DNA from: Escherichia coli
GTDB lineage: Bacteria > Pseudomonadota > Gammaproteobacteria > Enterobacterales > Enterobacteriaceae
Strand: one strand, 5' to 3'
Length of the DNA stretch: 64,000 nucleotides
Assembly: GCA_023061495.1 (NCBI GenBank)
Contig: GCA_023061495.1_3643.1
The first letter of the stretch is position 1; the number at the start of each line of letters is the position of its first letter. Under the pieces are notes generated by a model. The model was not told the DNA's origin, did not search any database, and worked only from the letters and a program-made list of their open reading frames with translations. Shown here piece after piece: positions 3,225 to 58,778 of the stretch. A program made the position numbers and the translations under genes.

Positions 3225-3686
3225 CTACTTGAACAACAGTTCAAGATAGTGCAAAATTAACAGAAGTTGAATTACGCCTAGCACAACGGCGAGTATATTA
3301 ATCTTAGAATCAAAAAACTTCTTAACTTTTACCCAAAAAGGCTCCTTAATGTCCTTCACGATCCTATTTATAGATGATTTCATATCTCTGATTACCATCC
3401 TAAACATTAGAGACGGATCTTCCTTCTCTGTAACAGAATCGAAAACATACTCTCTTCGATCACAAGGACCTCCAGATCTGCGTATTAACCTCTCCACAGA
3501 GACCTCGTACGACACACCTGTAACGTAATCATCTATGACAAGTAGTGACGGGTCTTTATCATCCAAAGGTATCAGAGTTATCTTTCCAGATTTTGTTAAA
3601 ATTTCTCCTTTTTCAAGCAAGGTGTACCAATGCTCTCTACCAAGATTGTTGAGGCACGTTTTTACATATTTAACAAACATCGTCAC
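3225..3686 (-). CDS. hypothetical protein (C-terminal hydrophobic tail)
   Basis: 153-aa ORF; C-terminus ILAVVLGVIQLLLILHYL looks like a membrane anchor. Confidence 0.5.
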   Translation of the reverse strand: MTMFVKYVKTCLNNLGREHWYTLLEKGEILTKSGKITLIPLDDKDPSLLVIDDYVTGVSYEVSVERLIRRSGGPCDRREYVFDSVTEKEDPSLMFRMVIRDMKSSINRIVKDIKEPFWVKVKKFFDSKINILAVVLGVIQLLLILHYLELLFK

Positions 3687-3886
3687 CCCTCATCGCACGT
3701 CTGATATAACCATTCTATAAAATCTTGATACCACTCTCCCTCTGAACGCTCCGTAGGCCAATAATCTTCCCCATCTCTTGCATTAAAATCCGAGTATTCA
3801 ACTTTCCACTCCTTTACCAGCTCGTGGAGAAGGTTTTCAGCCTGTTCTAAGGATTTATTTTTTGTCATCACTGTCCCCTTTTTCAA
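3683..3886 (-). CDS. hypothetical small protein
   Basis: 67 aa, start overlaps stop of upstream small ORF. Confidence 0.4.
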   Translation of the reverse strand: MKKGTVMTKNKSLEQAENLLHELVKEWKVEYSDFNARDGEDYWPTERSEGEWYQDFIEWLYQTCDEG

Positions 3887-3974
3887 GATAATTATACATC
3901 AGTGCCGCGCCACCCAAAATGGCTACCAGCAGTAATACTCCAGAGAGCATTTCAATAAACATGGCTTGAAACAT
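3855..3974 (-). CDS. putative 39-aa single-pass membrane peptide (MFQAMFIEMLSGVLLLVAILGGAALMYNYLEKGDSDDKK)
   Basis: found by hand, below ORF-track size cutoff; hydrophobic core; TAATG overlap with upstream ORF. Confidence 0.3.
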   Translation of the reverse strand: MFQAMFIEMLSGVLLLVAILGGAALMYNYLEKGDSDDKK

Positions 3975-26708: not shown

Positions 26709-26711
26709 CCA

Positions 26712-27191
26712 TTAATCCAGTACTGTGCCTCCGGCTTTTCGGAAGACGTCCAGCATCTTCTCTATGTTTTCTACACGCTGATCATACAGTTTACCAGCCC
26801 CCGGTGGTGGTGGGAAACTTGCCCAACGGCTACGGCATTTATAGATAGCTGAACGGATCCTTCCTTCATAAATGTCATCAAGGGCTTTACATTCGCGGAT
26901 CAACTGTTTTGCTATGGCATCCTGACTTGCCGGACCAAAATCTCTTAAGCCAAGCTGCTTCATGTAATGCTTAGCGTATTTCTCCAGAATTTGGTATCTG
27001 CCAAATGCTGAAGAGGTAAGGCCCGGTCTTAATTTGACATAAATACCGGGATGCCTGCTGAGATCCTCTATGTATTTTCCACCAACAAGGATGTGGTACG
27101 AAGCATCTTCGCCACCATACCTGTCAGTACCTTCTGAGTGTGAAATCATCGAAAAAAATGCTCTCAATTGTACATTTTTATCTAGCTTCAT
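26712..27191 (-). CDS. endolysin, lambda R-like lytic transglycosylase
   Basis: strong resemblance to recalled lambda R: F.MISHSEGTD, GRYQ, KQLGLRDF, RW/IWASFP.PGAG, AGGTV at C-terminus. Confidence 0.8.
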   Translation of the reverse strand: MKLDKNVQLRAFFSMISHSEGTDRYGGEDASYHILVGGKYIEDLSRHPGIYVKLRPGLTSSAFGRYQILEKYAKHYMKQLGLRDFGPASQDAIAKQLIRECKALDDIYEGRIRSAIYKCRSRWASFPPPPGAGKLYDQRVENIEKMLDVFRKAGGTVLD

Positions 27192-27904
27192 TTAAACCTC
27201 CGATTAAACCACTCTTCCAACGAATCATCATGTTTTGCATATTCTGCGGATTTTCTGACGCATACAGCATCCCACCACTCCGTGTATTGCCCCAAATGAT
27301 ACCTTTTGCTGTTTTCAGCAATCTGAACTTGCCACTTGTCAGTATCGTGTCTCCATTTAACACCTGTACACCCAGATGTGTTATTAAGTTTTAGTATTTT
27401 GCCTTTATAAGTACCTGAAACTAGCTGTTTTCTTGCCTCTACAGCCTCATCTTTGGTCTTAAAGTACCCAGCAAACCTATCTCCTTCGAGGGTGTTATAT
27501 ACTGCATACCATAAACCACATTTCTTATAAACTCCTAAGTTACCGTGCGGGTTATTTTTCGGGAGTAAATTATTTCTTATACGGTCCTTGTTGTTATCAC
27601 TGTAGGTGCCCATAGAAAGATTTTCTATATTATCCTGGCCTTTTATATCATTTAAATGCCTGACAAGAAAGTTTTTTGTTAAAGAGTTATAAAACATGTC
27701 GTAAATAATTCTATGACGCTTCTTATCACCACCTTTATGAGAGTTGATTATAACATACCCTTGTGCATCATTACAACCAGCTTTTGTGCCAGCTTTTATG
27801 AAGAGTTGATTTTTACCTCGGCCTCTATAATGATTCTTTGTCCAAACTAGCTCCCCATCTTTGTACCAAAATGCAAAATTATCATTGAAGAAGAAATTAA
27901 TCAT
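27188..27904 (-). CDS. HNH homing endonuclease with AP2-like DNA-binding domain
   Basis: HNH core GYVIINSHKG...HRIIY...VRHLND; C-terminal AP2-like GVKWRHDTDKWQVQI; N-terminus abuts assembly gap so start may be incomplete. Confidence 0.65.
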   Translation of the reverse strand: MINFFFNDNFAFWYKDGELVWTKNHYRGRGKNQLFIKAGTKAGCNDAQGYVIINSHKGGDKKRHRIIYDMFYNSLTKNFLVRHLNDIKGQDNIENLSMGTYSDNNKDRIRNNLLPKNNPHGNLGVYKKCGLWYAVYNTLEGDRFAGYFKTKDEAVEARKQLVSGTYKGKILKLNNTSGCTGVKWRHDTDKWQVQIAENSKRYHLGQYTEWWDAVCVRKSAEYAKHDDSLEEWFNRRFK

Positions 27905-27914
27905 TTTTTTTTTA

Positions 27915-28011
27915 NNNNNNNNNNNNNNNNNNNNNNNNNNNNNNNNNNNNNNNNNNNNNNNNNNNNNNNNNNNNNNNNNNNNNNNNNNNNNNNNNNNNNN
28001 NNNNNNNNNNN
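27915..28011. other. assembly gap (97 N) flanked by homopolymer T runs
   Basis: literal N run in sequence. Confidence 0.95.
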
Positions 28012-28167
28012 TATTTTTTTTTTACTCTCCAATCTACTTATAGCATATCCGATCAACAACACTGTACAGCATGGTTATATTGCACAGTGCGAATATCAGG
28101 GCATATGCAGGTGCCAATTGAAAACACTCATTCAATTGGCTACCGTTATCTACTAAACATACCTAAA

Positions 28168-47475: not shown

Positions 47476-48026
47476 TGGAAGCTTTCGAAAAAGTTTTTTC
47501 TGATCTTGAAACAACCATTGCTAAGCTTGTCAAGGTTGCCACAGGAAGAACTGTAGTTCTGGCAGAAAGCTCTACCATACCGAAGCCGGAAGGTGAGTTT
47601 GTACTTTTACAAACCTTGGCGATCAATCCCACCACTTGGGAAGATAATGAGTTTCAAGATGCGGAGGGTAATGCTTACGTAACACACAGTTACACTGTTA
47701 CCTATCTGTTAACAGCTTATCGTGGCAGGGCACATGCTGCACTTGGCAGAGTATTGCAAGCAATAAACCTTCCAATGTTTTATGACAAGTATTTCCCTCT
47801 GGGATCGTGCTTTGCCTACTCTAACAATTCAACAATCTCACCTCAAAGAGTGCCGTTGAATAAGCAGGCGTATGAAAATAGGGCCACGGTAATGCTGACA
47901 TTTAACGTAAGGTTTGTTGAGACAGACATTGGGGCTTTTGAGGATCTTCAGGGAATTAAGGCTGAAATAACCACACACTTCCCTCCACCCAATTCTGATA
48001 AATCGGTTACAGACAGTGGTCAGTAA
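47475..48026 (+). CDS. hypothetical tail-completion protein
   Basis: 183-aa ORF immediately upstream of sheath-sized gene. Confidence 0.4.
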   Translation: MEAFEKVFSDLETTIAKLVKVATGRTVVLAESSTIPKPEGEFVLLQTLAINPTTWEDNEFQDAEGNAYVTHSYTVTYLLTAYRGRAHAALGRVLQAINLPMFYDKYFPLGSCFAYSNNSTISPQRVPLNKQAYENRATVMLTFNVRFVETDIGAFEDLQGIKAEITTHFPPPNSDKSVTDSGQ

Positions 48027-48098
48027 TCGTTATAATTGTGTAGTGTAATGATTACACTGCGTGTTTGATATCCGTGCACAGATATTAAGAGGAAACAA

Positions 48099-49475
48099 AT
48101 GCCATATTTAGATAAAGTGGTAGATGTTACAGTTAACCTCGGAACCCAACCTATTGACACTGTAGGTTTCGAAACTCCGCTGTTCATCGCTATCCACAAC
48201 AACTTTACTGAGCGAGCTCGTGTATATGCTGAGCTGGATCAGATGGTGGAAGACGGTTTCGCACAAGGCTCTGCAGCGTATGAGTTTGCAGCAAAAGCTT
48301 TCGGCGGTGTATTCCCTCCACAGTATGTTATGATCGGCAGACAAGCCAAAGAAAAAACCACTGTAGATTTTAAAGGTATTGCTGCCGCAGCTGATACCGA
48401 TGTCGTAATGACCATTGCAAAAGGTGGCTACAATACTTCTTTGATAGTCCCTATCTCTGGTGGAACAGGTGCAACTCAGATTGCAGAGGCAATGAAGACT
48501 AAAATCGAAGCCGATGATAACTTGGACGATATCACTGTAGAGGCTGCTGAAGGTGTTATCACCATCACTGGTAACTGCACTGTTGGTTATCATACTGGTA
48601 ACTATACAATCAAAAATATCGCCAATGCTGAAAAACCTTCTACAGTAGTTGATAAGATCAATGCTGAGCGGGACAATTGGTACTTCCTGTGCCATGAAGA
48701 CCACACCGACATTGAAGCATGTGCTAAGTGGGCTCAGGCTAACTACAAGCTGCATGTCTACTCTACTGCAGAAGATGTGACTGGCAAAGAAAGTAACATC
48801 GCCACCAAACTGATGGCTGCACAATATGATAGTGTCGGCATGTACGATCCTCGTGCGGATAAAGATTTTCCGGAGGGTGGTATCATAGGTGCTATGGCAT
48901 CCAACGACCCGTCTTACGGTGACAGTTTGCACTTAAAACAGATGCCTGGTGTGATTGCACCATCTCTGACTTTGACTCAGCGTATGGCGATTTGGGAAAA
49001 CCACGTTAACTTCTACAGAATGATTAACGGTGTTGGCGCTTTCTGGGAAGGTAAGTGTGCTTCAGGTCAGTATGCAGACGCTATTCGTTTTGCACACTGG
49101 ATCAAGTTCAGATCTGAAGAATCCATGTTCGGGTACATGCATCGCCGCTCCAATATGGGTTTAAGCATGAAGATGTCTGATGATGATCTTCCGGTTATCA
49201 AGTCTGTTCTGATGAACAACCCGATCAATACTGGCATTAAGAATGGCGCGATCCTGACAGGTTTTGACGAAGACAACAATGTGTTCTACGACCCGATCAT
49301 CACAGTTCCTAAACGTGCAGAAATCCCAACCAATCAGTTGGCTGCTCGTGTTCTGGAAGGTGTGAAAGTAGAACTGGTGTATAACAACGCCTTGCACTTC
49401 GTTCGTATCCGGATCAACGTCCTCCTGGACAAAGTTGGTTCTAAATCCACCAATGCTGTTGCAATGACTGAATAA
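48099..49475 (+). CDS. putative tail sheath protein
   Basis: 458 aa, host-optimal codons, immediately followed by a 157-aa tube-sized gene and then chaperone/tape-measure genes; call rests on order and size. Confidence 0.5.
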   Translation: MPYLDKVVDVTVNLGTQPIDTVGFETPLFIAIHNNFTERARVYAELDQMVEDGFAQGSAAYEFAAKAFGGVFPPQYVMIGRQAKEKTTVDFKGIAAAADTDVVMTIAKGGYNTSLIVPISGGTGATQIAEAMKTKIEADDNLDDITVEAAEGVITITGNCTVGYHTGNYTIKNIANAEKPSTVVDKINAERDNWYFLCHEDHTDIEACAKWAQANYKLHVYSTAEDVTGKESNIATKLMAAQYDSVGMYDPRADKDFPEGGIIGAMASNDPSYGDSLHLKQMPGVIAPSLTLTQRMAIWENHVNFYRMINGVGAFWEGKCASGQYADAIRFAHWIKFRSEESMFGYMHRRSNMGLSMKMSDDDLPVIKSVLMNNPINTGIKNGAILTGFDEDNNVFYDPIITVPKRAEIPTNQLAARVLEGVKVELVYNNALHFVRIRINVLLDKVGSKSTNAVAMTE

Positions 49476-49485
49476 GGAAGACTAG

Positions 49486-49959
49486 ATGGAAACTCAAATT
49501 TTAACTCCTTATGCGTATGACCCTAAAAAGGTCAAACTGTATCTGATGCAGCAGCGTGTCACTGGCTTCGCTGCTGACACCAAGATCGTTGTTTCAAGAA
49601 ACGAAGACAACATCTACCCTCACGTTGGTGTGGATGGTGAAATGTCTGCGGCACTGTCTCGTAACCAATCTGGTGTTATGACTGTATCCTTACAGAACAC
49701 TTCTGTATGGAACGCTTACCTTTCTGACTGGCAGAAACAGGCATCGATTACTGGTCTGGTATTCTTCCCGGTTCTGCTGGAAGGTAGCCAGGGTCCAGGC
49801 ATTGCTACAATCGGTTGGATCCAGAAACAGCCTGACCTGACTTACGGAACCGAAGTAGGTCAACTGGACTGGGATATCGGTATTCTGGATGCATGGCTCA
49901 ACCGTGACAACATCACTGGTGCTCTCACTGGCCTCGCAGGTCTTGCAGGTATTATCTAA
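49486..49959 (+). CDS. putative tail tube protein
   Basis: 157 aa after sheath candidate, followed by terminator. Confidence 0.45.
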   Translation: METQILTPYAYDPKKVKLYLMQQRVTGFAADTKIVVSRNEDNIYPHVGVDGEMSAALSRNQSGVMTVSLQNTSVWNAYLSDWQKQASITGLVFFPVLLEGSQGPGIATIGWIQKQPDLTYGTEVGQLDWDIGILDAWLNRDNITGALTGLAGLAGII

Positions 49960-49976
49960 GAGCACACTCTAGCATA

Positions 49977-50003
49977 GGCCTCACCTTTGGGTGGGGCTTT
50001 TTG
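49977..50003 (+). terminator. rho-independent terminator
   Basis: GGCCTCACC-tttg-GGTGGGGC followed by TTTTT. Confidence 0.55.
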
Positions 50004-50064
50004 CTTTTAGGGTTTTGACATATTTGTTTGTTTTTAGTATCCTATAATAAAGGAGGAGACAGTC

Positions 50065-51690
50065 ATGGCTAAATTGAGTGCAGAAAGGTTTATCGAAAAA
50101 GCTCGTAGGGTTCACGGAGATAAGTACGACTATTCTCTTATAGAATACAAAACATGCAAAGATAAGATAGAAATAGTCTGCAATACCTGTGGTAACCACT
50201 TCAACCAGACACCGGATAACCATATAAATCTAAAAAGAGGATGCCCTGTTTGTGGAGCTGAGAGATCTGCAAAATCAAGAAAGGGTAAGAAATTCCCCCA
50301 TGAGCGTGGTAACAGGTGCACTACAGAAGAGTGGATCAAGAAGGTACTAAAAAGATATCCTGAAAATGCTGAAAAGTATGATTATAGTCATGTAGTGTAC
50401 AAGACCTCTGGAGATAAGGTTGAGATTCATTGCAAAATGTGCGGAAGAATAATGCACCAGAAACCTAGCAAGCATTTGTCAGGGCAAGGATGCAAGACTT
50501 GCGCAGCAAGATCTGTTTCTGCGAAAAAAGTTCCTAGCTTCCAAGAAATAGTTGAGAGATGTGTAGAAGTACATGGTAGTGATTATGAGTATTTTGAAGA
50601 CTCTTATGTGAACACCTCAACACCTATGATGATGCGCCACAAAGAGTGTGGGAATATCTTCATGCAGCGTCCTGAATTCCATTACGGGAAAGGACAAGGA
50701 TGCCCTCGTTGCTGTCGAAATCAGTCTAATGGTGAGAAAGAGATCCTGACGTTCATTAAAAGTGTGTATAGCGGCGATATTGAAGAGAACGTGCGTATTC
50801 TGGGCAACTTTAAGGATCCTTCCAAGAAAAAGATGGAGCTGGACATTTATGTTCCGGAGCTTAAGCTTGCTGTGGAATATAATGGTGCCTACTGGCACTC
50901 TGTAGACAGTAAGGGGAAATGGTACCACATCCTGAAAAGGAAGGCCTGTGAAAAACAAGGTATTCGCATGTTGTCTATCTGGGATTGTGATTGGCAGGAT
51001 GCTCGGAAAAGACCTATCATTGAGAGATATCTCAAGAATGCTTTAGGAGTCAAAGACGAGAAGACCGTCTATGCCAGAAAGTGCACAGTTAAAGATGTGG
51101 ACAATAAAACTTACCGTGACTTTATGGAGAAAAACCACATTCAAGGGTATGCCCCCGCCAAGGAAGTGAAGAAGGGTCTGTTTACATCTGACGGCGAGCT
51201 GGTAGCTTGTATGAGTTTTAAAATACTGAAAAACAGAGATCAAAAGGTAACCCCTTTCGTTATGTGGGACATGGTAAGGTATGCAACAAGCTGTAACGTT
51301 CCTGGTGGGCGTAGTAAGCTGTTTAAGCATATCCGAGAAGAGTTTAAGATGGATCATGTTCAATCCTTCCTTGACAGAGATTACTTCACAGGCGTGTCCT
51401 ATAAGGAGGAGGATGGCTGGATTTTGGCAGAGGACGATCAGGTGTCTACGAGCTTCTGGAGCTACCGTGGTGGCAGAATGCCAAGGCAGGCGTGGTGGAA
51501 GTCAAACATCCCAGAGACACTGAAGCATCTCGGGTTGGACGAGTCCTTATACGATCCTGAGAAAACACAAGAGTGGAATGCCAAAAATGCAGGCTGCTAT
51601 ATCCTTGAAAACAGTGGCAACTCTCGCTTTGAATGGCACAGTGATGAAGGTAAAAATGATCCTGCATACTTGGATTGGTTGAAAGGTTAA
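50065..51690 (+). CDS. putative free-standing homing endonuclease (zinc-ribbon repeats plus nuclease-like domain)
   Basis: three repeats of a CxxC...CxxC module (CNTCGNHF..CPVCG; CKMCGRIM..CKTCA; ECGNIF..CPRCC); central ELDIYVPELKLAVEYNGAYWH resembles a PD-(D/E)xK/Vsr-like core; AT-rich codon usage unlike flanking tail genes. Confidence 0.5.
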   Translation: MAKLSAERFIEKARRVHGDKYDYSLIEYKTCKDKIEIVCNTCGNHFNQTPDNHINLKRGCPVCGAERSAKSRKGKKFPHERGNRCTTEEWIKKVLKRYPENAEKYDYSHVVYKTSGDKVEIHCKMCGRIMHQKPSKHLSGQGCKTCAARSVSAKKVPSFQEIVERCVEVHGSDYEYFEDSYVNTSTPMMMRHKECGNIFMQRPEFHYGKGQGCPRCCRNQSNGEKEILTFIKSVYSGDIEENVRILGNFKDPSKKKMELDIYVPELKLAVEYNGAYWHSVDSKGKWYHILKRKACEKQGIRMLSIWDCDWQDARKRPIIERYLKNALGVKDEKTVYARKCTVKDVDNKTYRDFMEKNHIQGYAPAKEVKKGLFTSDGELVACMSFKILKNRDQKVTPFVMWDMVRYATSCNVPGGRSKLFKHIREEFKMDHVQSFLDRDYFTGVSYKEEDGWILAEDDQVSTSFWSYRGGRMPRQAWWKSNIPETLKHLGLDESLYDPEKTQEWNAKNAGCYILENSGNSRFEWHSDEGKNDPAYLDWLKG

Positions 51691-51763
51691 ATTGACAATG
51701 CACTATAATCATGGTAAAATACACAAATATGGTGCACAACATGACTAATAAGGATGCTATAAA

Positions 51764-52237
51764 ATGGCTATAAACTTTAGACCTACAACAGAGATTGATT
51801 TAGCAGGGCACAACTTTGTGATCACCCACTGGGGACCGATGAAAGCAATGAAAAACATGCCTAAAATCGGTAAGATTGTAGCTGTCCCGCTAGGTGCTAT
51901 CGGTGGATCTATTCTCTCAGGCGGTCAGAATATGGCAGAGGTCCTTCCTACAGCCCTGGCTTACCTGTTCCAAGAACTTGATGATAACTCTATCGAAGAG
52001 TTATTTAAAATCTTGTTTGAAGATATTACCGTGGATGGTGTGGATAAGCTTAACCCTGATGTTGTGTTTGCAGGGCATCTGCTGGAGATGATTAAGCTGG
52101 CAGGTAAGGTTCTGGAGGTTAACTACGGCTGTTTTTTCACACAAGACGGTTTAGGAAGCCTTCTGGAGATGTTACAGCAGATGGGTATGATTCAGCAGGT
52201 GAACAATCTGGATCAGACTCCGGAAGAGCAGGAATAA
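51764..52237 (+). CDS. tail assembly chaperone (gpG-like)
   Basis: 157-aa acidic protein between tube and tape-measure genes; contains slippery heptamer near 3' end. Confidence 0.55.
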   Translation: MAINFRPTTEIDLAGHNFVITHWGPMKAMKNMPKIGKIVAVPLGAIGGSILSGGQNMAEVLPTALAYLFQELDDNSIEELFKILFEDITVDGVDKLNPDVVFAGHLLEMIKLAGKVLEVNYGCFFTQDGLGSLLEMLQQMGMIQQVNNLDQTPEEQE

Positions 52238-52497
52238 GCAAGGTTGTTGTGAGGGCCAGTGAGTGGGCAGCCAAGAACAGTTCACTCAACTGGTTCGACT
52301 TTCTTTGGTGCAGGGTGCTTAAGAATTTCAAAGGGGAAAATTTTGAATCGCTAAATCTTGCAGATATGGCGTATTTCCTGAAGCTCTGTGAGTATCTTGA
52401 TATCGAAGAATTCCTAGATACCGTCCAAAACAGGGAAATGGAGCGGGAGCAGAAGGCTGCCGCAGCTGCTGCGAAAGCTAAGCGCAGGAGAGGATAA
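52123..52497 (+). CDS. frameshift extension of tail assembly chaperone (gpGT-like C-terminal part)
   Basis: -1 frame relative to chaperone, open across the overlap; ORF-track piece 52249..52497 is its distal part. Confidence 0.45.
   Translation, partial: LRLFFHTRRFRKPSGDVTADGYDSAGEQSGSDSGRAGISKVVVRASEWAAKNSSLNWFDFLWCRVLKNFKGENFESLNLADMAYFLKLCEYLDIEEFLDTVQNREMEREQKAAAAAAKAKRRRG
52132..52138 (+). other. candidate programmed -1 ribosomal frameshift site T_TTT_TTC
   Basis: X_XXY_YYZ heptamer in zero frame of chaperone gene; the -1 frame is open from 52123 to stop at 52497. Confidence 0.5.
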
Positions 52498-52502
52498 TCT
52501 AA

Positions 52503-52538
52503 GGGCCGGATTCCTTTTCTGGGATCTGGCCCTTTTTA
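52503..52538 (+). terminator. rho-independent terminator
   Basis: GGGCCGGAT...ATCTGGCCC stem followed by TTTTT. Confidence 0.5.
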
Positions 52539-52551
52539 TTATGAGGAAAGC

Positions 52552-54891
52552 ATGGCTACAAACAAAATAGTTGCCACAACAGTCAACAAGATTGGCTTTG
52601 AGATAGAGAACTCCTCCTACAAAAAAGCTGTAGAGAAAATTCGCAGTATTGGGAGGGAGTTCAGGAAACTGGGCGAGGATTTTAACTCAGCCAACCCAAT
52701 GAGTAGATGGCAGGCAGTGGCTGTTAAAACCCAGCAAACAATGCAGCGGGTTGCCAGACAGCAATCTCAGGCAAATGCTAAACTGCACAGGGAGAGCGTA
52801 GCACAAGCCAAGAAAGAGGCTGCAGTAAGGGCTGCAATAGAACGTAGGGAGAACGCAAGACGTAAACAAGCTGTGGGTAATCTTACCGCTAAAAATCCAG
52901 AAATGGCTAGGATGCGTAAGTTCTACCAGCAGCAAGCTAAAGAGGCCAAAAAGGCTGCCAAATCTGCACCAGTGTCTTACGGCGGTTATAAGGCACCCAA
53001 GGCAAGAGTTTTGGCTAATGCCAAATCTTTCAAGTATATCCCTGGTAACCCTAATATGGGTGGTGTGGCTTCCGACCCTAACCTTGTGAAAGCTCAGACA
53101 GCTGCTATGAATCGTTATCATAGACAGCTAAGAAGAGACAGTAAAGCTGGTATGGATAATAAGCTTATGTCTGATCGTGAGGCAAGGAGAACCCACCTAT
53201 ACAACTCTGCGATAAGACTTTCTGCCAAGTATGGGGCCGGATTCCGTGGAAGCTTGCCAGGATACTCAGAGTTAGAGTCTAGGTTTGCTCGCGGTGAGAT
53301 GAAAAAGTCAACCTTTAACGCCCACCTGTCAGCTCTGCAGTCTGGATTTAAAAGCGCCACCAGCCAAACGCTTACACTGGGTGATGCCATGAGAGACTTA
53401 CGTAGGTCTGTTATTAATGCAACAGCTGCGTATACAGCTTTCTCTGGATTTGCTGCGGTTAACAGATCCGGTCACATGATGGAGGGGGCAAGTGCTGCTC
53501 TTACTGCTGTTACTGGAGATCCAAACAAAGCCAACAGCGAGGTTGCGTTTGTCCAGCAAGAGGCTATGCGTCTTGGTTTTGATCTCAAATCTGGTCTTCA
53601 AGGTTACGCCCAGATGTCGGTAAACGCCAAAAACCAGATGACAAATCAGGAAGTGCATGAGCTGTTTTCTGCATACTCACAGTATGCTGCTGCTTACGGT
53701 GCCGATGAGGTAAAATACCAGCGTGGTATTATGGCAATCCAGCAAATGCTCGGTAAAGGGCAAGTAATGTCCGAAGAACTGAAGCAACAACTTGCTGAAG
53801 CATTGCCTGGTGCATACGAACCTTTTATCAAGGCCACCAAAGAGGCTTTTGGTCTTTCTGAACTCTCCATGGATCAGTTCATGGACATGATGAAGAAAGG
53901 CGAGGTTAAAACAGCCAAGATCATGAAGTATGTGGCTAAGTACATGAACGAGGCATCTGCAGCTGGTTATGAAAGAATGCAGAAGTCTAACGTACTGGCA
54001 GAAAACAGACTGAAAACCTTCATTGAACTGTCTCGTCAGAAACTATTCACCCGTTGGGCTGATGAACTAACAGAGTTCTATTATACACTGATTCGCACTG
54101 GTGAGACTTTGCAATTTGTGTGGGATGCCTCTGGTGATTTTGTTAGTGGTTTTGTGAGAGGTCTCAACTGGGTAGTTGGTGAACTAAACAATACCATAGT
54201 CAAGATCCGCATGTTTTTCCTTGAATGGGGGATTAAATGGGGACTCATAACAGCTAAGACGAAGGAATATTCTGAAGAGCTTAATGACACCTTTAGCTAT
54301 GCTAAATGGGCAGGGTTTGCTGCTGCCATTATGCTGGTAGTGAACGCCCTGACAAAAGGTTTTGTCATGGCATCTATGCTTGTAAAAACCTTCAAATTCC
54401 TTAGTTCTATAAGAGGTGCAGCTGGAGCAGCAGGTGCAGGTGCAGCTACCACAGAAGGATCTGGTGGTGGTGCGGCAGGAAAAGGGGGAGGTGGCCTCAA
54501 GACACCTGGTGGTAAAGTTGGCCTGCTTGGTAAGCTTGGTATTATCGGTACAATATTAAGCGCCGTGGAGTTATTTAATGACCGTTTCAACCCACTGAGT
54601 GAGAGAAATCAGCAACTGGATACTGTCAGCGATATGATTCGCAAAGATATCATATCTGGAGGTAACGGGTTTGTTGATCCTTTGGACACCTTACCGGGAG
54701 GGACTCTTCCGTTGCCAGGTGGCCCTGGTTTTGCTTCTCAATTAAGAACTATGGAAATGCTCCCTTTAGAGATTAGTGATGGTAAAATCACGATTTCAAT
54801 AGATGAGGGGGAGTTTAGCAAAATACTTGATGCAAAACTTGAGTGGGAGAACAACAAGGATATTAACTTTATGTCAACAGATCTTTGGTAA
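52552..54891 (+). CDS. tail tape measure protein
   Basis: 779 aa, helix/coiled-coil-rich with Gly-rich hydrophobic segment (GAAGAAGAGAATTEGSGGGAAGKGGGG); canonical position after chaperone frameshift pair. Confidence 0.8.
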   Translation: MATNKIVATTVNKIGFEIENSSYKKAVEKIRSIGREFRKLGEDFNSANPMSRWQAVAVKTQQTMQRVARQQSQANAKLHRESVAQAKKEAAVRAAIERRENARRKQAVGNLTAKNPEMARMRKFYQQQAKEAKKAAKSAPVSYGGYKAPKARVLANAKSFKYIPGNPNMGGVASDPNLVKAQTAAMNRYHRQLRRDSKAGMDNKLMSDREARRTHLYNSAIRLSAKYGAGFRGSLPGYSELESRFARGEMKKSTFNAHLSALQSGFKSATSQTLTLGDAMRDLRRSVINATAAYTAFSGFAAVNRSGHMMEGASAALTAVTGDPNKANSEVAFVQQEAMRLGFDLKSGLQGYAQMSVNAKNQMTNQEVHELFSAYSQYAAAYGADEVKYQRGIMAIQQMLGKGQVMSEELKQQLAEALPGAYEPFIKATKEAFGLSELSMDQFMDMMKKGEVKTAKIMKYVAKYMNEASAAGYERMQKSNVLAENRLKTFIELSRQKLFTRWADELTEFYYTLIRTGETLQFVWDASGDFVSGFVRGLNWVVGELNNTIVKIRMFFLEWGIKWGLITAKTKEYSEELNDTFSYAKWAGFAAAIMLVVNALTKGFVMASMLVKTFKFLSSIRGAAGAAGAGAATTEGSGGGAAGKGGGGLKTPGGKVGLLGKLGIIGTILSAVELFNDRFNPLSERNQQLDTVSDMIRKDIISGGNGFVDPLDTLPGGTLPLPGGPGFASQLRTMEMLPLEISDGKITISIDEGEFSKILDAKLEWENNKDINFMSTDLW

Positions 54892-57962: not shown

Positions 57963-58778
57963 ATGGCTACGCTTTATAGTGATATATTGATGGACCCACA
58001 GACAGGCGATTTGGCGATAGACAAAGGTCTTGAGTTGATAGACTCAAACCAAGTAAGTCTGCGCCAGCGCCTGTGGATGAGGTTTAATACCTGGAAAGGG
58101 AGCTGGTACTTTGACGAGTTGTTTGGCTTCCCTTATATGGACTTTCTCAGTAAGAAGGTCATGAAGACTGTTCTTGATAACAAGATTATGGAAGTGGCAA
58201 GACAAGAGCCGGATGTGCTAAACATCATAAACTTCCAATCTACTATGGATCGAAGATCGAGAACATATCAAGCGTTCTTTGAGGTTGTTACCAAGGAGAA
58301 CGAGATTGTAAGACTTGCTTTCGTAGGTCTTGATCAGTTTACCTATCCACAGCCTGATGCTGGGACAACCTCTCTCTGTGATGATGAAGGTTGGATTAAG
58401 TGGGCTAATAAACTGTACTACCTGATCAACTTTAGATTGCCTAGAACCGGGGATGCCACATGGTGGAACCAGTATGCCGGTCCTGAGATGGAAAACCCGA
58501 TCCCTGTAGGCTCTCTGTTGACTCAGGATAAAGATCTGCTGATGACTGAGGCAGAACAAACCATTAACCGCAATACCTGGACGCTTGCTCCAGATGAGCG
58601 CGAATATTCTGGTGTTATTGCTACATCTAATGATGAGGCTATTGCCAACCAGTCTGACGTNNNNNNNNNNNNNNNNNNNNNNNNNNNNNNNNNNNNNNNN
58701 NNNNNNNNNNNNNNNNNNNNNNNNNNNNNNNNNNNNNNNNNNNNNNNNNNNNNNGGTCGTGCTATTGATGTTAACTAA
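57963..58778 (+). CDS. hypothetical baseplate protein, interrupted by assembly gap
   Basis: ORF spans the N run 58661..58754, so true length and frame are unverified. Confidence 0.35.
   Translation: MATLYSDILMDPQTGDLAIDKGLELIDSNQVSLRQRLWMRFNTWKGSWYFDELFGFPYMDFLSKKVMKTVLDNKIMEVARQEPDVLNIINFQSTMDRRSRTYQAFFEVVTKENEIVRLAFVGLDQFTYPQPDAGTTSLCDDEGWIKWANKLYYLINFRLPRTGDATWWNQYAGPEMENPIPVGSLLTQDKDLLMTEAEQTINRNTWTLAPDEREYSGVIATSNDEAIANQSDXXXXXXXXXXXXXXXXXXXXXXXXXXXXXXXXGRAIDVN
58661..58754. other. assembly gap (94 N)
   Basis: literal N run. Confidence 0.95.

Follow-up and report, generated by a model that had tools for sequence, protein, structure and literature searches.

Homing of Hef, the prototype Hef-like endonuclease of the T-even phage U5, has reportedly been demonstrated in crosses between U5 and T4. 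Hef cleaves nrdB (Edgell et al. 2010), and phage Hef-type endonucleases have been placed in a Vsr-like nuclease family (Taylor et al. 2011). Their genes are free-standing and sporadic, often lying next to structural genes. I-Bth0305I (PDB 3r3p), the prototype of the related 'EDxHD' family, is intron-encoded and has NUMOD/HTH DNA-binding motifs and no GNAT domain, while E. coli Vsr (1cw0) and DUF559/NGO0050 (3hrl) are stand-alone cellular proteins of repair or unknown function that are not mobile and lack both a zinc array and a GNAT domain. CapR from the PLE satellite of Vibrio and the T5orf172 homing endonucleases of ICP1 have a zinc module for which cysteine-dependent DNA binding was established by experiment; these proteins carry a GIY-YIG-like T5orf172 nuclease or none, and CapR contains just one such module. 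Phage Mu Mom (PDB 8bv8) is a Gly-tRNA-dependent GNAT enzyme that modifies adenines. Fusions of a restriction-endonuclease-fold domain to a Mom-family domain (REase-Mom fusions) have been described in jumbo phages and read as restriction combined with protective momylation (Iyer, Anantharaman, Krishnan, Burroughs and Aravind 2021), an interpretation other than homing. Our literature search found no paper connecting 'Hef-like homing endonucleases' with 'REase-Mom fusions'.

Here we analyze a 541-aa ORF in a 64,000-nucleotide stretch of DNA (the window) from a Vequintavirus, an rV5-like coliphage. The ORF lies between the gene for a tube-like virion protein (49486..49959) and that for the tail assembly chaperone (TAC; 51764..52237), in the surrounding order sheath-tube-TAC-TMP. 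Both its extent and its interruption of a conserved late gene order, as given in the initial annotation, were confirmed, including the ATG start and an upstream Shine-Dalgarno sequence (Table 1). Codon usage had been called AT-rich; this does not hold, as the ORF and the window have the same GC content (0.431) and the GC3 of the ORF (0.459) matches that of the sheath (0.444) and tube (0.462) genes. Since its composition is indistinguishable from that of the phage, we rejected composition as a sign of recent acquisition, and nothing marks the gene as recent. The protein consists of zinc modules, a Vsr-like nuclease and a Mom-like GNAT domain, and its AF2 model has a mean pLDDT of 89.5. It matches phrog_559 (1.3e-110) and phrog_3339 (1.6e-66); an NCBIfam search gave no match, and no paralogue of the ORF was found within the window.

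Table 1. Positions of the ORF, its domains and the flanking signals in the window
Feature	Position	Strand	Details
Rho-independent terminator of the tube gene	49976..50009	+	10-bp stem, 6 GC pairs, T-run
Putative sigma-70-like promoter at the left junction	50015..50043	+	TTGACA-17-TATCCT, 10/12 matches
DNA absent from rV5 and FV3	50021..51668	+	1648 bp in place of 6 bp (CACGTT); pairwise junctions against rV5, FV3 also compared
Shine-Dalgarno sequence AGGAGG	50051-50056	+	8 nt before the ATG, read from the sequence
ORF of the probable Hef-like homing endonuclease	50065..51690	+	541 aa, ATG start
Zinc module 1	50065..50289	+	aa 1-75; C39xxC42...C60xxC63
Zinc module 2	50320..50538	+	aa 86-158; C123xxC126...C143xxC146; Pfam DUF4379 at 101-148, E 0.0027
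Zinc module 3	50539..50724	+	aa 159-220; H192xxC195...C213xxC216, i.e. HxxC...CxxC
Vsr-like PD-(D/E)xK nuclease domain	50725..51054	+	aa 221-330; conserved E224, D260, E271, N273, H278, H288, K291
Mom-like GNAT domain	51055..51687	+	aa 331-541; helical insertion at about aa 474-508
Last 22 nt of the ORF, with stop codon	51669..51690	+	20/22 nt shared with the empty site of gene-less phages
Native chaperone-gene promoter (rV5 'P51')	51692..51720	+	TTGACA-17-TAAAAT, 11/12 matches, TG extension; rV5 annotation

Alignment against rV5 gave sharp insert junctions, the right boundary being fixed to within about 10 nt (51669-51679). In rV5 and FV3 the place of the insert, after the tube-gene terminator and before the chaperone promoter, is taken by roughly 6-16 bp, and the spacing of the anchors on either side is 16-17 nt in six gene-less phages versus 1655-1891 nt in six gene-bearing ones. 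The end of the ORF is largely common to the empty site, and judging from these 22 nt the 'empty' alleles could equally have descended by deletion of the gene. The terminator hairpin (49976..49999 plus the T-run; -21.5 kcal/mol, z -3.67) also occurs in gene-less phages including rV5, and is therefore native to the tube gene; it lies outside the insert and borders the insertion site on the left. The gene had been described as bracketed by a terminator: the hairpin is real, yet it belongs to the tube gene, and none was found downstream of the ORF, where the native chaperone promoter stands intact directly after the stop codon. At the left junction, a putative promoter takes its -35 element TTGACA from the native flank and its -10 element TATCCT, after a 17-nt spacer, from the insert; from its sequence it would be expected to serve the inserted gene, and phages A147 and PDX have a homologous leader with TTGACA-17-TATCAT.

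A transposon or IS origin of the insert was considered and rejected, as terminal inverted repeats, a target-site duplication and a transposase domain are all missing. An imperfect 16-nt inverted repeat (50019-50034 / 51716-51731) was treated as chance because one of its arms is in native sequence. Within 60 nt upstream of the insert, SNPs at 49961, 49969 and 50010 are common only to the three carriers of a three-module allele, and the SNP at 49966 is shared by the four-module carriers, unlike the three-module set; with too few independent lineages, these carrier-marking SNPs define no recognition site.

An internal repeat of about 70 aa occurs three times in the N-terminal part of the protein, and every copy has two pairs of metal ligands. 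The initial annotation had three tandem CxxC...CxxC modules; the three tandem repeats stand, whereas the third begins with HxxC. Across 121 family sequences the modules follow the pattern (C/H)xx(C/H), 16-20 residues, CxxC, the ligands being Cys or His in 116-121 of the 121 sequences, with Cys in all of them at positions 123, 143 and 146. By sequence, the modules are zinc DNA-binding modules of the CapR / DUF723 / DUF4379 type, so that the protein shares the cysteine-dependent module of CapR and the ICP1 enzymes in a tandem array of three, joined to a Vsr-like nuclease. The window protein scores below the Pfam zinc-module threshold (18.3 versus 24.5 bits), and among 44 relatives DUF4379 is found in 41, DUF723 in 36 and CapR in 13. 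Structure elements of the AF2 model are in line with zinc module 1, which, from sequence comparison, seems to combine parts of modules 1 and 2 of four-module alleles. The number of modules varies from 2 to 12 per protein across the family, 29 of the 121 sequences have three, and both module loss and allele chimeras occur naturally.

The PD-(D/E)xK/Vsr-like core that had been proposed was recovered at residues ~220-330, where fold and catalytic residues match I-Bth0305I and Vsr. A profile built from the 44 relatives and searched against all PDB sequences gave a single match, I-Bth0305I (E 3e-6); the family profile was needed, as the window protein alone reached only E 0.42. Residues D260, E271, N273 and H278 align with D196, E206, N208 and H213 of I-Bth0305I. 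Relative to its EDxHD reference motif (E170, D196, N208, H213, D222), four of the five positions are kept: E224 (116/121), D260 (119), N273 (108) and H278 (114), E224 being matched by position because the profile alignment stops short of E170. The fifth residue, Asp222, corresponds to H288, a position that is His in 111 and Asp in 5 of the 121 sequences. The window protein retains every nuclease residue with full or near-full conservation among the 121 relatives. An HNH endonuclease, as phrog_559 is labeled, was rejected: neither the window protein nor the families listed for the 44 relatives include a Pfam HNH match. The only nuclease fold detected is Vsr-like, and the HNH label appears to be a misnomer.

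The domain search also revealed a C-terminal domain that the initial annotation had not mentioned, a Mom-like GNAT domain that makes up 39% of the protein (residues 331-541; about 210 aa). Its best Foldseek match is phage Mu Mom (E 3.3e-5, 212 columns), with a helical insertion at the equivalent place, and hhalign of the domain profile against a 23-sequence Mom-family profile gave a probability of 91.4% (E 9e-7, 122 columns). Identity to Mu Mom is only about 12-15%; the likeness lies in fold and sequence, and unlike Mom, the domain shares a polypeptide with a nuclease and an array of zinc modules. The Mom active-site set comprises H58, Y59, R111, S124, D149, R151 and Y159 (PMC13219725). Five of these seven are kept, as H358, R405, S417, D437 and Y446, while Y59 and the essential R151 align with other residues in the window protein (I359 and D439). 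H358, R405 and Y446 are nearly invariant across the 121 sequences, position 417 is Ser in 77 and position 437 Asp in 83; position 439 is Arg in 21, and R438 is adjacent in the window protein. Mom W181 aligns with W477. A Pfam search of the window protein gave no Mom (PF25680) or GNAT match above threshold, and among the 44 relatives 2 matched Mom at E ≤ 0.01, one of which, P0077, falls below the PF25680 threshold (24.7 versus 27.1 bits). Against A147 and PDX, conservation is highest in the Mom-like domain (93% identity versus 59-83% for the other domains; dN/dS 0.03). A Mom-like fold that is the best conserved domain and keeps most of the catalytic residues is a feature that simple homing leaves unexplained.

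The gene is carried by 5 of 118 related phage records, the other 113 having an intact empty site (95.7-100% identity), and by 5 of 137 in another count; it is thus not conserved in all relatives, and it has no structural-protein homology. Copies in HMD-6 and JEP1 are full length and 99.4-99.8% identical to the window ORF. At the same site, the alleles of A147, A135 and PDX have four modules (611 and 616 aa, with 80-82% amino-acid identity), so that the window allele is one zinc module short of those of A147 and PDX, and more distant vequintavirus-like contigs have alleles at 66% and 62% identity. Allele dS is 1.0-1.9 versus 0.13 for the flanking tube and TAC genes, a roughly tenfold difference, and dN/dS is 0.03-0.06 across the nuclease and Mom-like domains, indicating strong purifying selection. 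This combination is compatible with a functional homing endonuclease gene having invaded the site more than once. On either side of the gene, the window resembles the gene-less FV3, while the flanks differ in other carriers: those of A147 and PDX resemble rV5 and FFH2, and P0261 is a natural chimera of both allele types; on these sequence relationships, the history of the gene is decoupled from that of its flanks, i.e. the gene has moved horizontally.

Matches to the 541-aa protein were found in 1112 phage records. A paralogue at 51% identity adjoins nrdD, and some Campylobacter phages have 9-11 matching places per genome. The UniRef name of the JEP1 orthologue is 'Hef-like homing endonuclease', and the Hef-like protein of Salmonella phage Sasha matches over 96% of the length at 50% identity. 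The depositor-named Hef-like proteins of Campylobacter phage CP220 and Acinetobacter phage KARL-1 have the nuclease plus Mom-like core of about 270-300 residues in common with the window protein (29-34% identity; E 1e-29 and 5e-34), whereas their N-terminal DNA-binding regions have no detectable similarity to its three zinc modules. The family is therefore widespread in phages and already named, and its architecture is common, not uncommon as had been supposed. The reading as a free-standing homing endonuclease gained support from the empty sites, the sharp junctions, the diverged same-site alleles in near-identical backgrounds and the nuclease fold. We consider it probable that the gene, free-standing and sporadic like that of Hef, is a homing endonuclease gene of the Hef-like lineage (Vsr-type, related to the EDxHD family), an assignment that rests on the depositor-named proteins and the UniRef name rather than on the sequence of U5 Hef.

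For such a gene, we infer the following course. Transcription would start from the promoter assembled at the left junction, and the three zinc modules, homologous to the CapR DNA-binding domain, would recognize an extended target, which is most likely the uninterrupted tube-TAC spacer of phages without the gene. The Vsr-like domain would cut this target with Mg2+ through D260, E271, N273 and H278, helped by E224, H288 and K291. During mixed infection, the break would be repaired by recombination with the gene-bearing genome, copying the gene into the empty site. The Mom-like GNAT domain would be an obligatory part of the conserved nuclease core and most likely holds or distorts the DNA, possibly by base flipping, and/or dimerizes the enzyme so that both strands are cut.

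The conservation of the Mom-like domain (93% identity, dN/dS 0.03) also bears on a different reading, in which the protein is a single-chain restriction-plus-modification weapon. The Mom-like domain would then modify the phage's own adenines and the nuclease degrade any DNA lacking the modification, whether from the host or from co-infecting phages, the gene spreading as a by-product of killing competitors rather than by site-specific homing. The five aligned active-site residues, the match of W477 to Mom W181 and the published prediction for the jumbo-phage REase-Mom fusions, which by their description are the same kind of fusion, fit this role. However, diverged alleles recur at exactly one intergenic site and paralogues stand at classic homing targets such as nrdD, a pattern characteristic of homing. 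A restriction-modification system would not be expected at as many as 11 places in one genome, the positions of Mom Y59 and the essential R151 hold other residues, and no Pfam Mom or GNAT threshold is reached, so we regard a weapon as quite improbable.

The reduction from four zinc modules, as in A147 and PDX, to three might instead indicate a former homing endonuclease, now domesticated as a DNA-binding regulator only, for which CapR is a precedent, or an inactive relic being lost; the position directly upstream of a late promoter is also in favor of this reading. It is very unlikely given that the nearly invariant nuclease residues are all intact, that dN/dS stays at 0.03-0.06 across the nuclease and Mom-like domains, that the ORF is full length and almost identical in HMD-6 and JEP1, and that many family members have three modules. 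A tail-assembly or structural accessory protein of the late operon has only the position between tube and chaperone genes in its favor; all three domains have nucleic-acid enzyme or DNA-binding folds, and the 113 relatives that assemble tails without the gene already refute this explanation, to which we give practically no weight.

As a homing endonuclease gene, the ORF is routine, and it adds a documented insertion site, the vequintavirus tube-TAC intergenic spacer. Homing crosses could conveniently be made with these natural phages, since the site offers clean alleles with and without the gene as well as several diverged versions. Variation in the tandem zinc modules suggests that DNA is recognized by a modular array. 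The Hef-like core, which hundreds of phage genomes encode and some of them as many as 11 times, joins a Vsr-type nuclease to a Mom-like GNAT domain; the latter retains most of Mom's catalytic residues and has evolved at a lower rate than the nuclease. It is possible, though we think it unlikely, that this domain is catalytically active and that Hef-like enzymes are homing endonucleases that also modify DNA adenines by a momylation-type aminoacyl transfer. If so, the modification could protect the carrier genome from the nuclease it encodes, or serve to label or deform the target; a modified adenine would be predicted in the DNA of HMD-6-/JEP1-type vequintaviruses and many other phages; and the family would be a hybrid of a homing endonuclease and a one-polypeptide restriction-modification system.

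Over positions 48000-54000, the window shows 97-98% identity to coliphages of the rV5-like group (genus Vequintavirus), with HMD-6 and JEP1 as the top matches. As the initial annotation had proposed, the ORF present there interrupts a conserved late-gene order, since it is flanked by sheath and tube genes on one side and by chaperone, small ORF and tape measure genes on the other. The hairpin that was reported near 49977-50003 is real, but it does not 'bracket' the ORF because it is the tube gene's own terminator, which also occurs in phages without the ORF, and no terminator-like structure was found downstream of the ORF. The codon usage had been described as AT-rich, yet the ORF has the same GC content as the window (0.431), and its GC3 of 0.459 falls between those of the sheath (0.444) and tube (0.462) genes. 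Only the part encoding the zinc modules, a third of the ORF, lies a little below this level, with a GC3 of 0.376, roughly one standard deviation under the mean of 52 long ORFs.

Coordinates of the ORF and its neighboring features in the window
Feature	Coordinates	Details
Tail sheath gene	48099..49475	phrog_205
Tube-type virion protein gene	49486..49959	Pfam KPP10_Orf10, phrog_280
Terminator of tube gene	49976..49999 + T-run	hairpin -21.5 kcal/mol, z -3.67
ORF under study	50065..51690 (+)	541 aa
Promoter P51, intact	51692..51720	11/12 matches + TG extension
Tail assembly chaperone gene	51764..52237	Phage_TAC_15
Small conserved ORF	52249..52497	
Tape measure gene	52552..54891	

In pairwise comparison, rV5 homology ends at window position 50020 and restarts at 51669, with 1648 bp in the window taking the place of 6 bp (CACGTT) of the 163-nt rV5 spacer. 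The anchors on either side are 16-17 nt apart in six gene-less phages and 1655-1891 nt apart in six carriers. The insert lies after the tube terminator and before P51, a sigma-70-type promoter named in the rV5 annotation; this insertion point is 'safe', being non-coding DNA 3' of a terminator and 5' of a promoter. At the left junction, the native flank contributes a TTGACA and, past a 17-nt spacer, the window has TATCCT, for which A147 and PDX have a better -10-type hexamer (TATCAT), and we infer that this promoter-like site works as a promoter. An AGGAGG stands 8 nt ahead of the ATG. The 3'-terminal 22 nt of the ORF, stop codon included, are identical to the empty site at 20 positions, so either the ORF end is target-derived sequence or the 'empty' alleles retain a relic of a lost gene. 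Terminal inverted repeats and a target duplication were looked for at the insert ends and none were found. A 16-nt imperfect inverted repeat (50019-50034 / 51716-51731, 88% complementary), with one arm right where the insert begins and its partner in native DNA just past P51, is probably due to chance.

The same insertion is seen when FV3 is compared with the whole window, where the sole other segment without an FV3 counterpart is at about 26709-28015. This segment holds the ORFs 27188..27904 (-) and 26712..27191 (-), including a 238-aa ORF in which HNH-like and AP2-like motifs were recognized by eye and which adjoins an endolysin-like gene just 75% identical to that of FV3. In FV3 this place is taken by a different 'HNH endonuclease', ORF083, and the segment probably represents a second polymorphic homing endonuclease together with a co-converted neighbor. 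In the tail-gene region, some 98 nt (58657-58754) also fall outside the FV3 alignment, and the flanking alignments join at one FV3 coordinate.

A 140-nt probe spanning the rV5 empty site retrieved 118 phage records, of which 113 have the site uninterrupted (86 at 99% identity or above) and five have it split by the gene (HMD-6, JEP1, A147, A135 and PDX). The alleles of A147 and PDX at this site encode 611 and 616 aa with four zinc modules, and the filled site of A135 has the same length as that of A147. Alleles 66% and 62% identical occur in two vequintavirus-like contigs that are more distant, likewise between tube and chaperone genes; one of these contigs (locus L005) has an additional 108-aa ORF (3578-3904) without a Pfam match between the tube and endonuclease genes. 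Another phage contig, about 141 kb long, has a 51%-identical paralogue next to nrdD (L007/L008, 589-5821), directly 3' of an nrdD called as five fragments (176, 102, 81, 169 and 116 aa), which suggests that this nrdD is riddled with introns or other insertions. Eighteen MG0656xx records labeled as Campylobacter phage (A147, A135, C15, A12a and others; some UNVERIFIED) match this E. coli rV5-like tail-gene region, with 93-97% identity among the matches listed, and their host labels look doubtful.

Between the window and A147, dS is 0.13 for the tube and chaperone genes, whereas in the endonuclease gene it is 1.0 in the Mom-like part, 1.9 in the nuclease part and saturated in the zinc modules, with dN/dS of 0.03-0.06. 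The window flanks resemble those of gene-less FV3, and those of A147 and PDX resemble rV5 and FFH2. The metagenomic relative P0261 (611 aa) is a natural chimera, in which zinc modules one to three (residues 1-215 or so) are of A147 type and the remainder, from about window residue 146 onward, is nearly identical to the window allele, which shows recombination between alleles within the gene. Together, the divergent alleles at one site, low flank dS, flank haplotypes and chimera show that functional alleles far older than their carrier phage backgrounds reached one site repeatedly. This is the signature expected of homing, and vertical descent, a structural role or a decaying relic would hardly account for it.

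An AlphaFold2 model built from an alignment of 44 sequences (mean pLDDT 89.5) divides the protein into three parts. Residues 1-220 form three helix-plus-zinc-knuckle modules (C39xxC42...C60xxC63; C123xxC126...C143xxC146; H192xxC195...C213xxC216), so the three tandem repeats noticed initially are clear, except that the third begins with HxxC rather than CxxC. The window protein has no match above threshold to the Pfam zinc-module families, while its 44 relatives match DUF4379 (41), DUF723 (36) and CapR (13). CapR, a DNA-binding domain domesticated from a homing endonuclease, needs its four cysteines for sequence-specific DNA binding (Netter et al. 2021). Conservation within the protein is lowest in the zinc modules (43-83% identity), whose number varies between 2 and 12 among 121 relatives (mode 4); the window allele seems to be a four-module allele reduced by one through a fusion of modules 1 and 2.

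The proposed PD-(D/E)xK/Vsr-like core proved correct for residues 221-330 or thereabouts. Searched against PDB sequences, the family profile has a single match, the I-Bth0305I catalytic domain (3r3p, E 3e-6), in which D260 and H278 align with two catalytic residues mutated in the crystal, E271 with E206 and N273 with N208. Seven residues (E224, D260, E271, N273, H278, H288 and K291) are kept in 108-121 of the 121 relatives. The fifth EDxHD residue differs, being D222 in I-Bth0305I and His288 here. Phage Hef-type endonucleases are members of the Vsr-like family (Taylor et al. 2011).

Residues 331-541, absent from the initial description, form a GNAT domain. With the whole model as query, Foldseek ranks phage Mu Mom first (8bv8, E 3.3e-5, 212 columns) and ordinary acetyltransferases next, and the domain profile matches a profile of 23 Mom-family proteins (probability 91.4%, E 9e-7). 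Five of the seven Mom active-site residues from structure-guided mutagenesis (H58, Y59, R111, S124, D149, R151 and Y159; PMC13219725) are kept in the aligned H358, I359, R405, S417, D437, D439 and Y446, with H358, R405 and Y446 nearly invariant across the family; W477 aligns with Mom W181 in a low-confidence stretch. No other part of the protein is as well conserved (93% identity to A147, 74% to distant alleles, dN/dS 0.03), and this domain is evidently indispensable. Alone it matches 342 phage records, many annotated as 'Hef-like homing endonuclease' and a few as 'nuclease/acetyltransferase', with up to 11 matching places in some Campylobacter phage genomes. The 'Hef-like' proteins of CP220 and KARL-1 have exactly this nuclease plus Mom-like core in common with the window protein, but lack its zinc modules.

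For REase-Mom fusions, Iyer et al. (2021) proposed restriction combined with protective momylation. We disfavor this reading for the ORF, as the site fidelity of the alleles, the paralogue locations and the copy numbers all oppose it. A homing endonuclease that also modifies DNA through an active Mom-like domain seems rather unlikely. Mom dimerizes tightly and binds double-stranded DNA, with a modeled flipping-out of the target adenine; the conservative reading is that the Mom-like domain would grip or distort DNA and/or dimerize the enzyme. The homing endonuclease identity first suggested for the ORF is supported in its core by site fidelity, old diverged alleles and the Vsr-like nuclease, from which we infer homing itself. 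Based on the anatomy of locus and protein and on knowledge of I-Bth0305I, CapR and Hef, the ORF would be transcribed from the putative junction promoter, the zinc-module array would dock the protein onto an extended target, the Vsr-like domain would then cleave DNA, and recombinational repair using a carrier genome as template would fill the empty spacer with a copy of the gene.

HMD-6 and JEP1 encode annotated 'hypothetical proteins' with 99.4-99.8% identity to the window protein; the one from JEP1 carries the UniRef name 'Hef-like homing endonuclease', and PHROGs places the window protein in phrog_559 ('HNH endonuclease') and phrog_3339 ('homing endonuclease'); it thus belongs to an already known, named kind. 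Neither fold nor Pfam supports the HNH label, which likely propagates as a mis-annotation from phrog_559, as the member analyzed here carries a Vsr-like nuclease and lacks an HNH motif. With matches in 1112 phage records, the architecture is common rather than uncommon as originally thought. In the searched literature, we found no statement that the conserved Hef-like core includes a Mom-like domain that retains most catalytic residues. This domain is worth a bench test, yet it is a property of the family and not of this locus.
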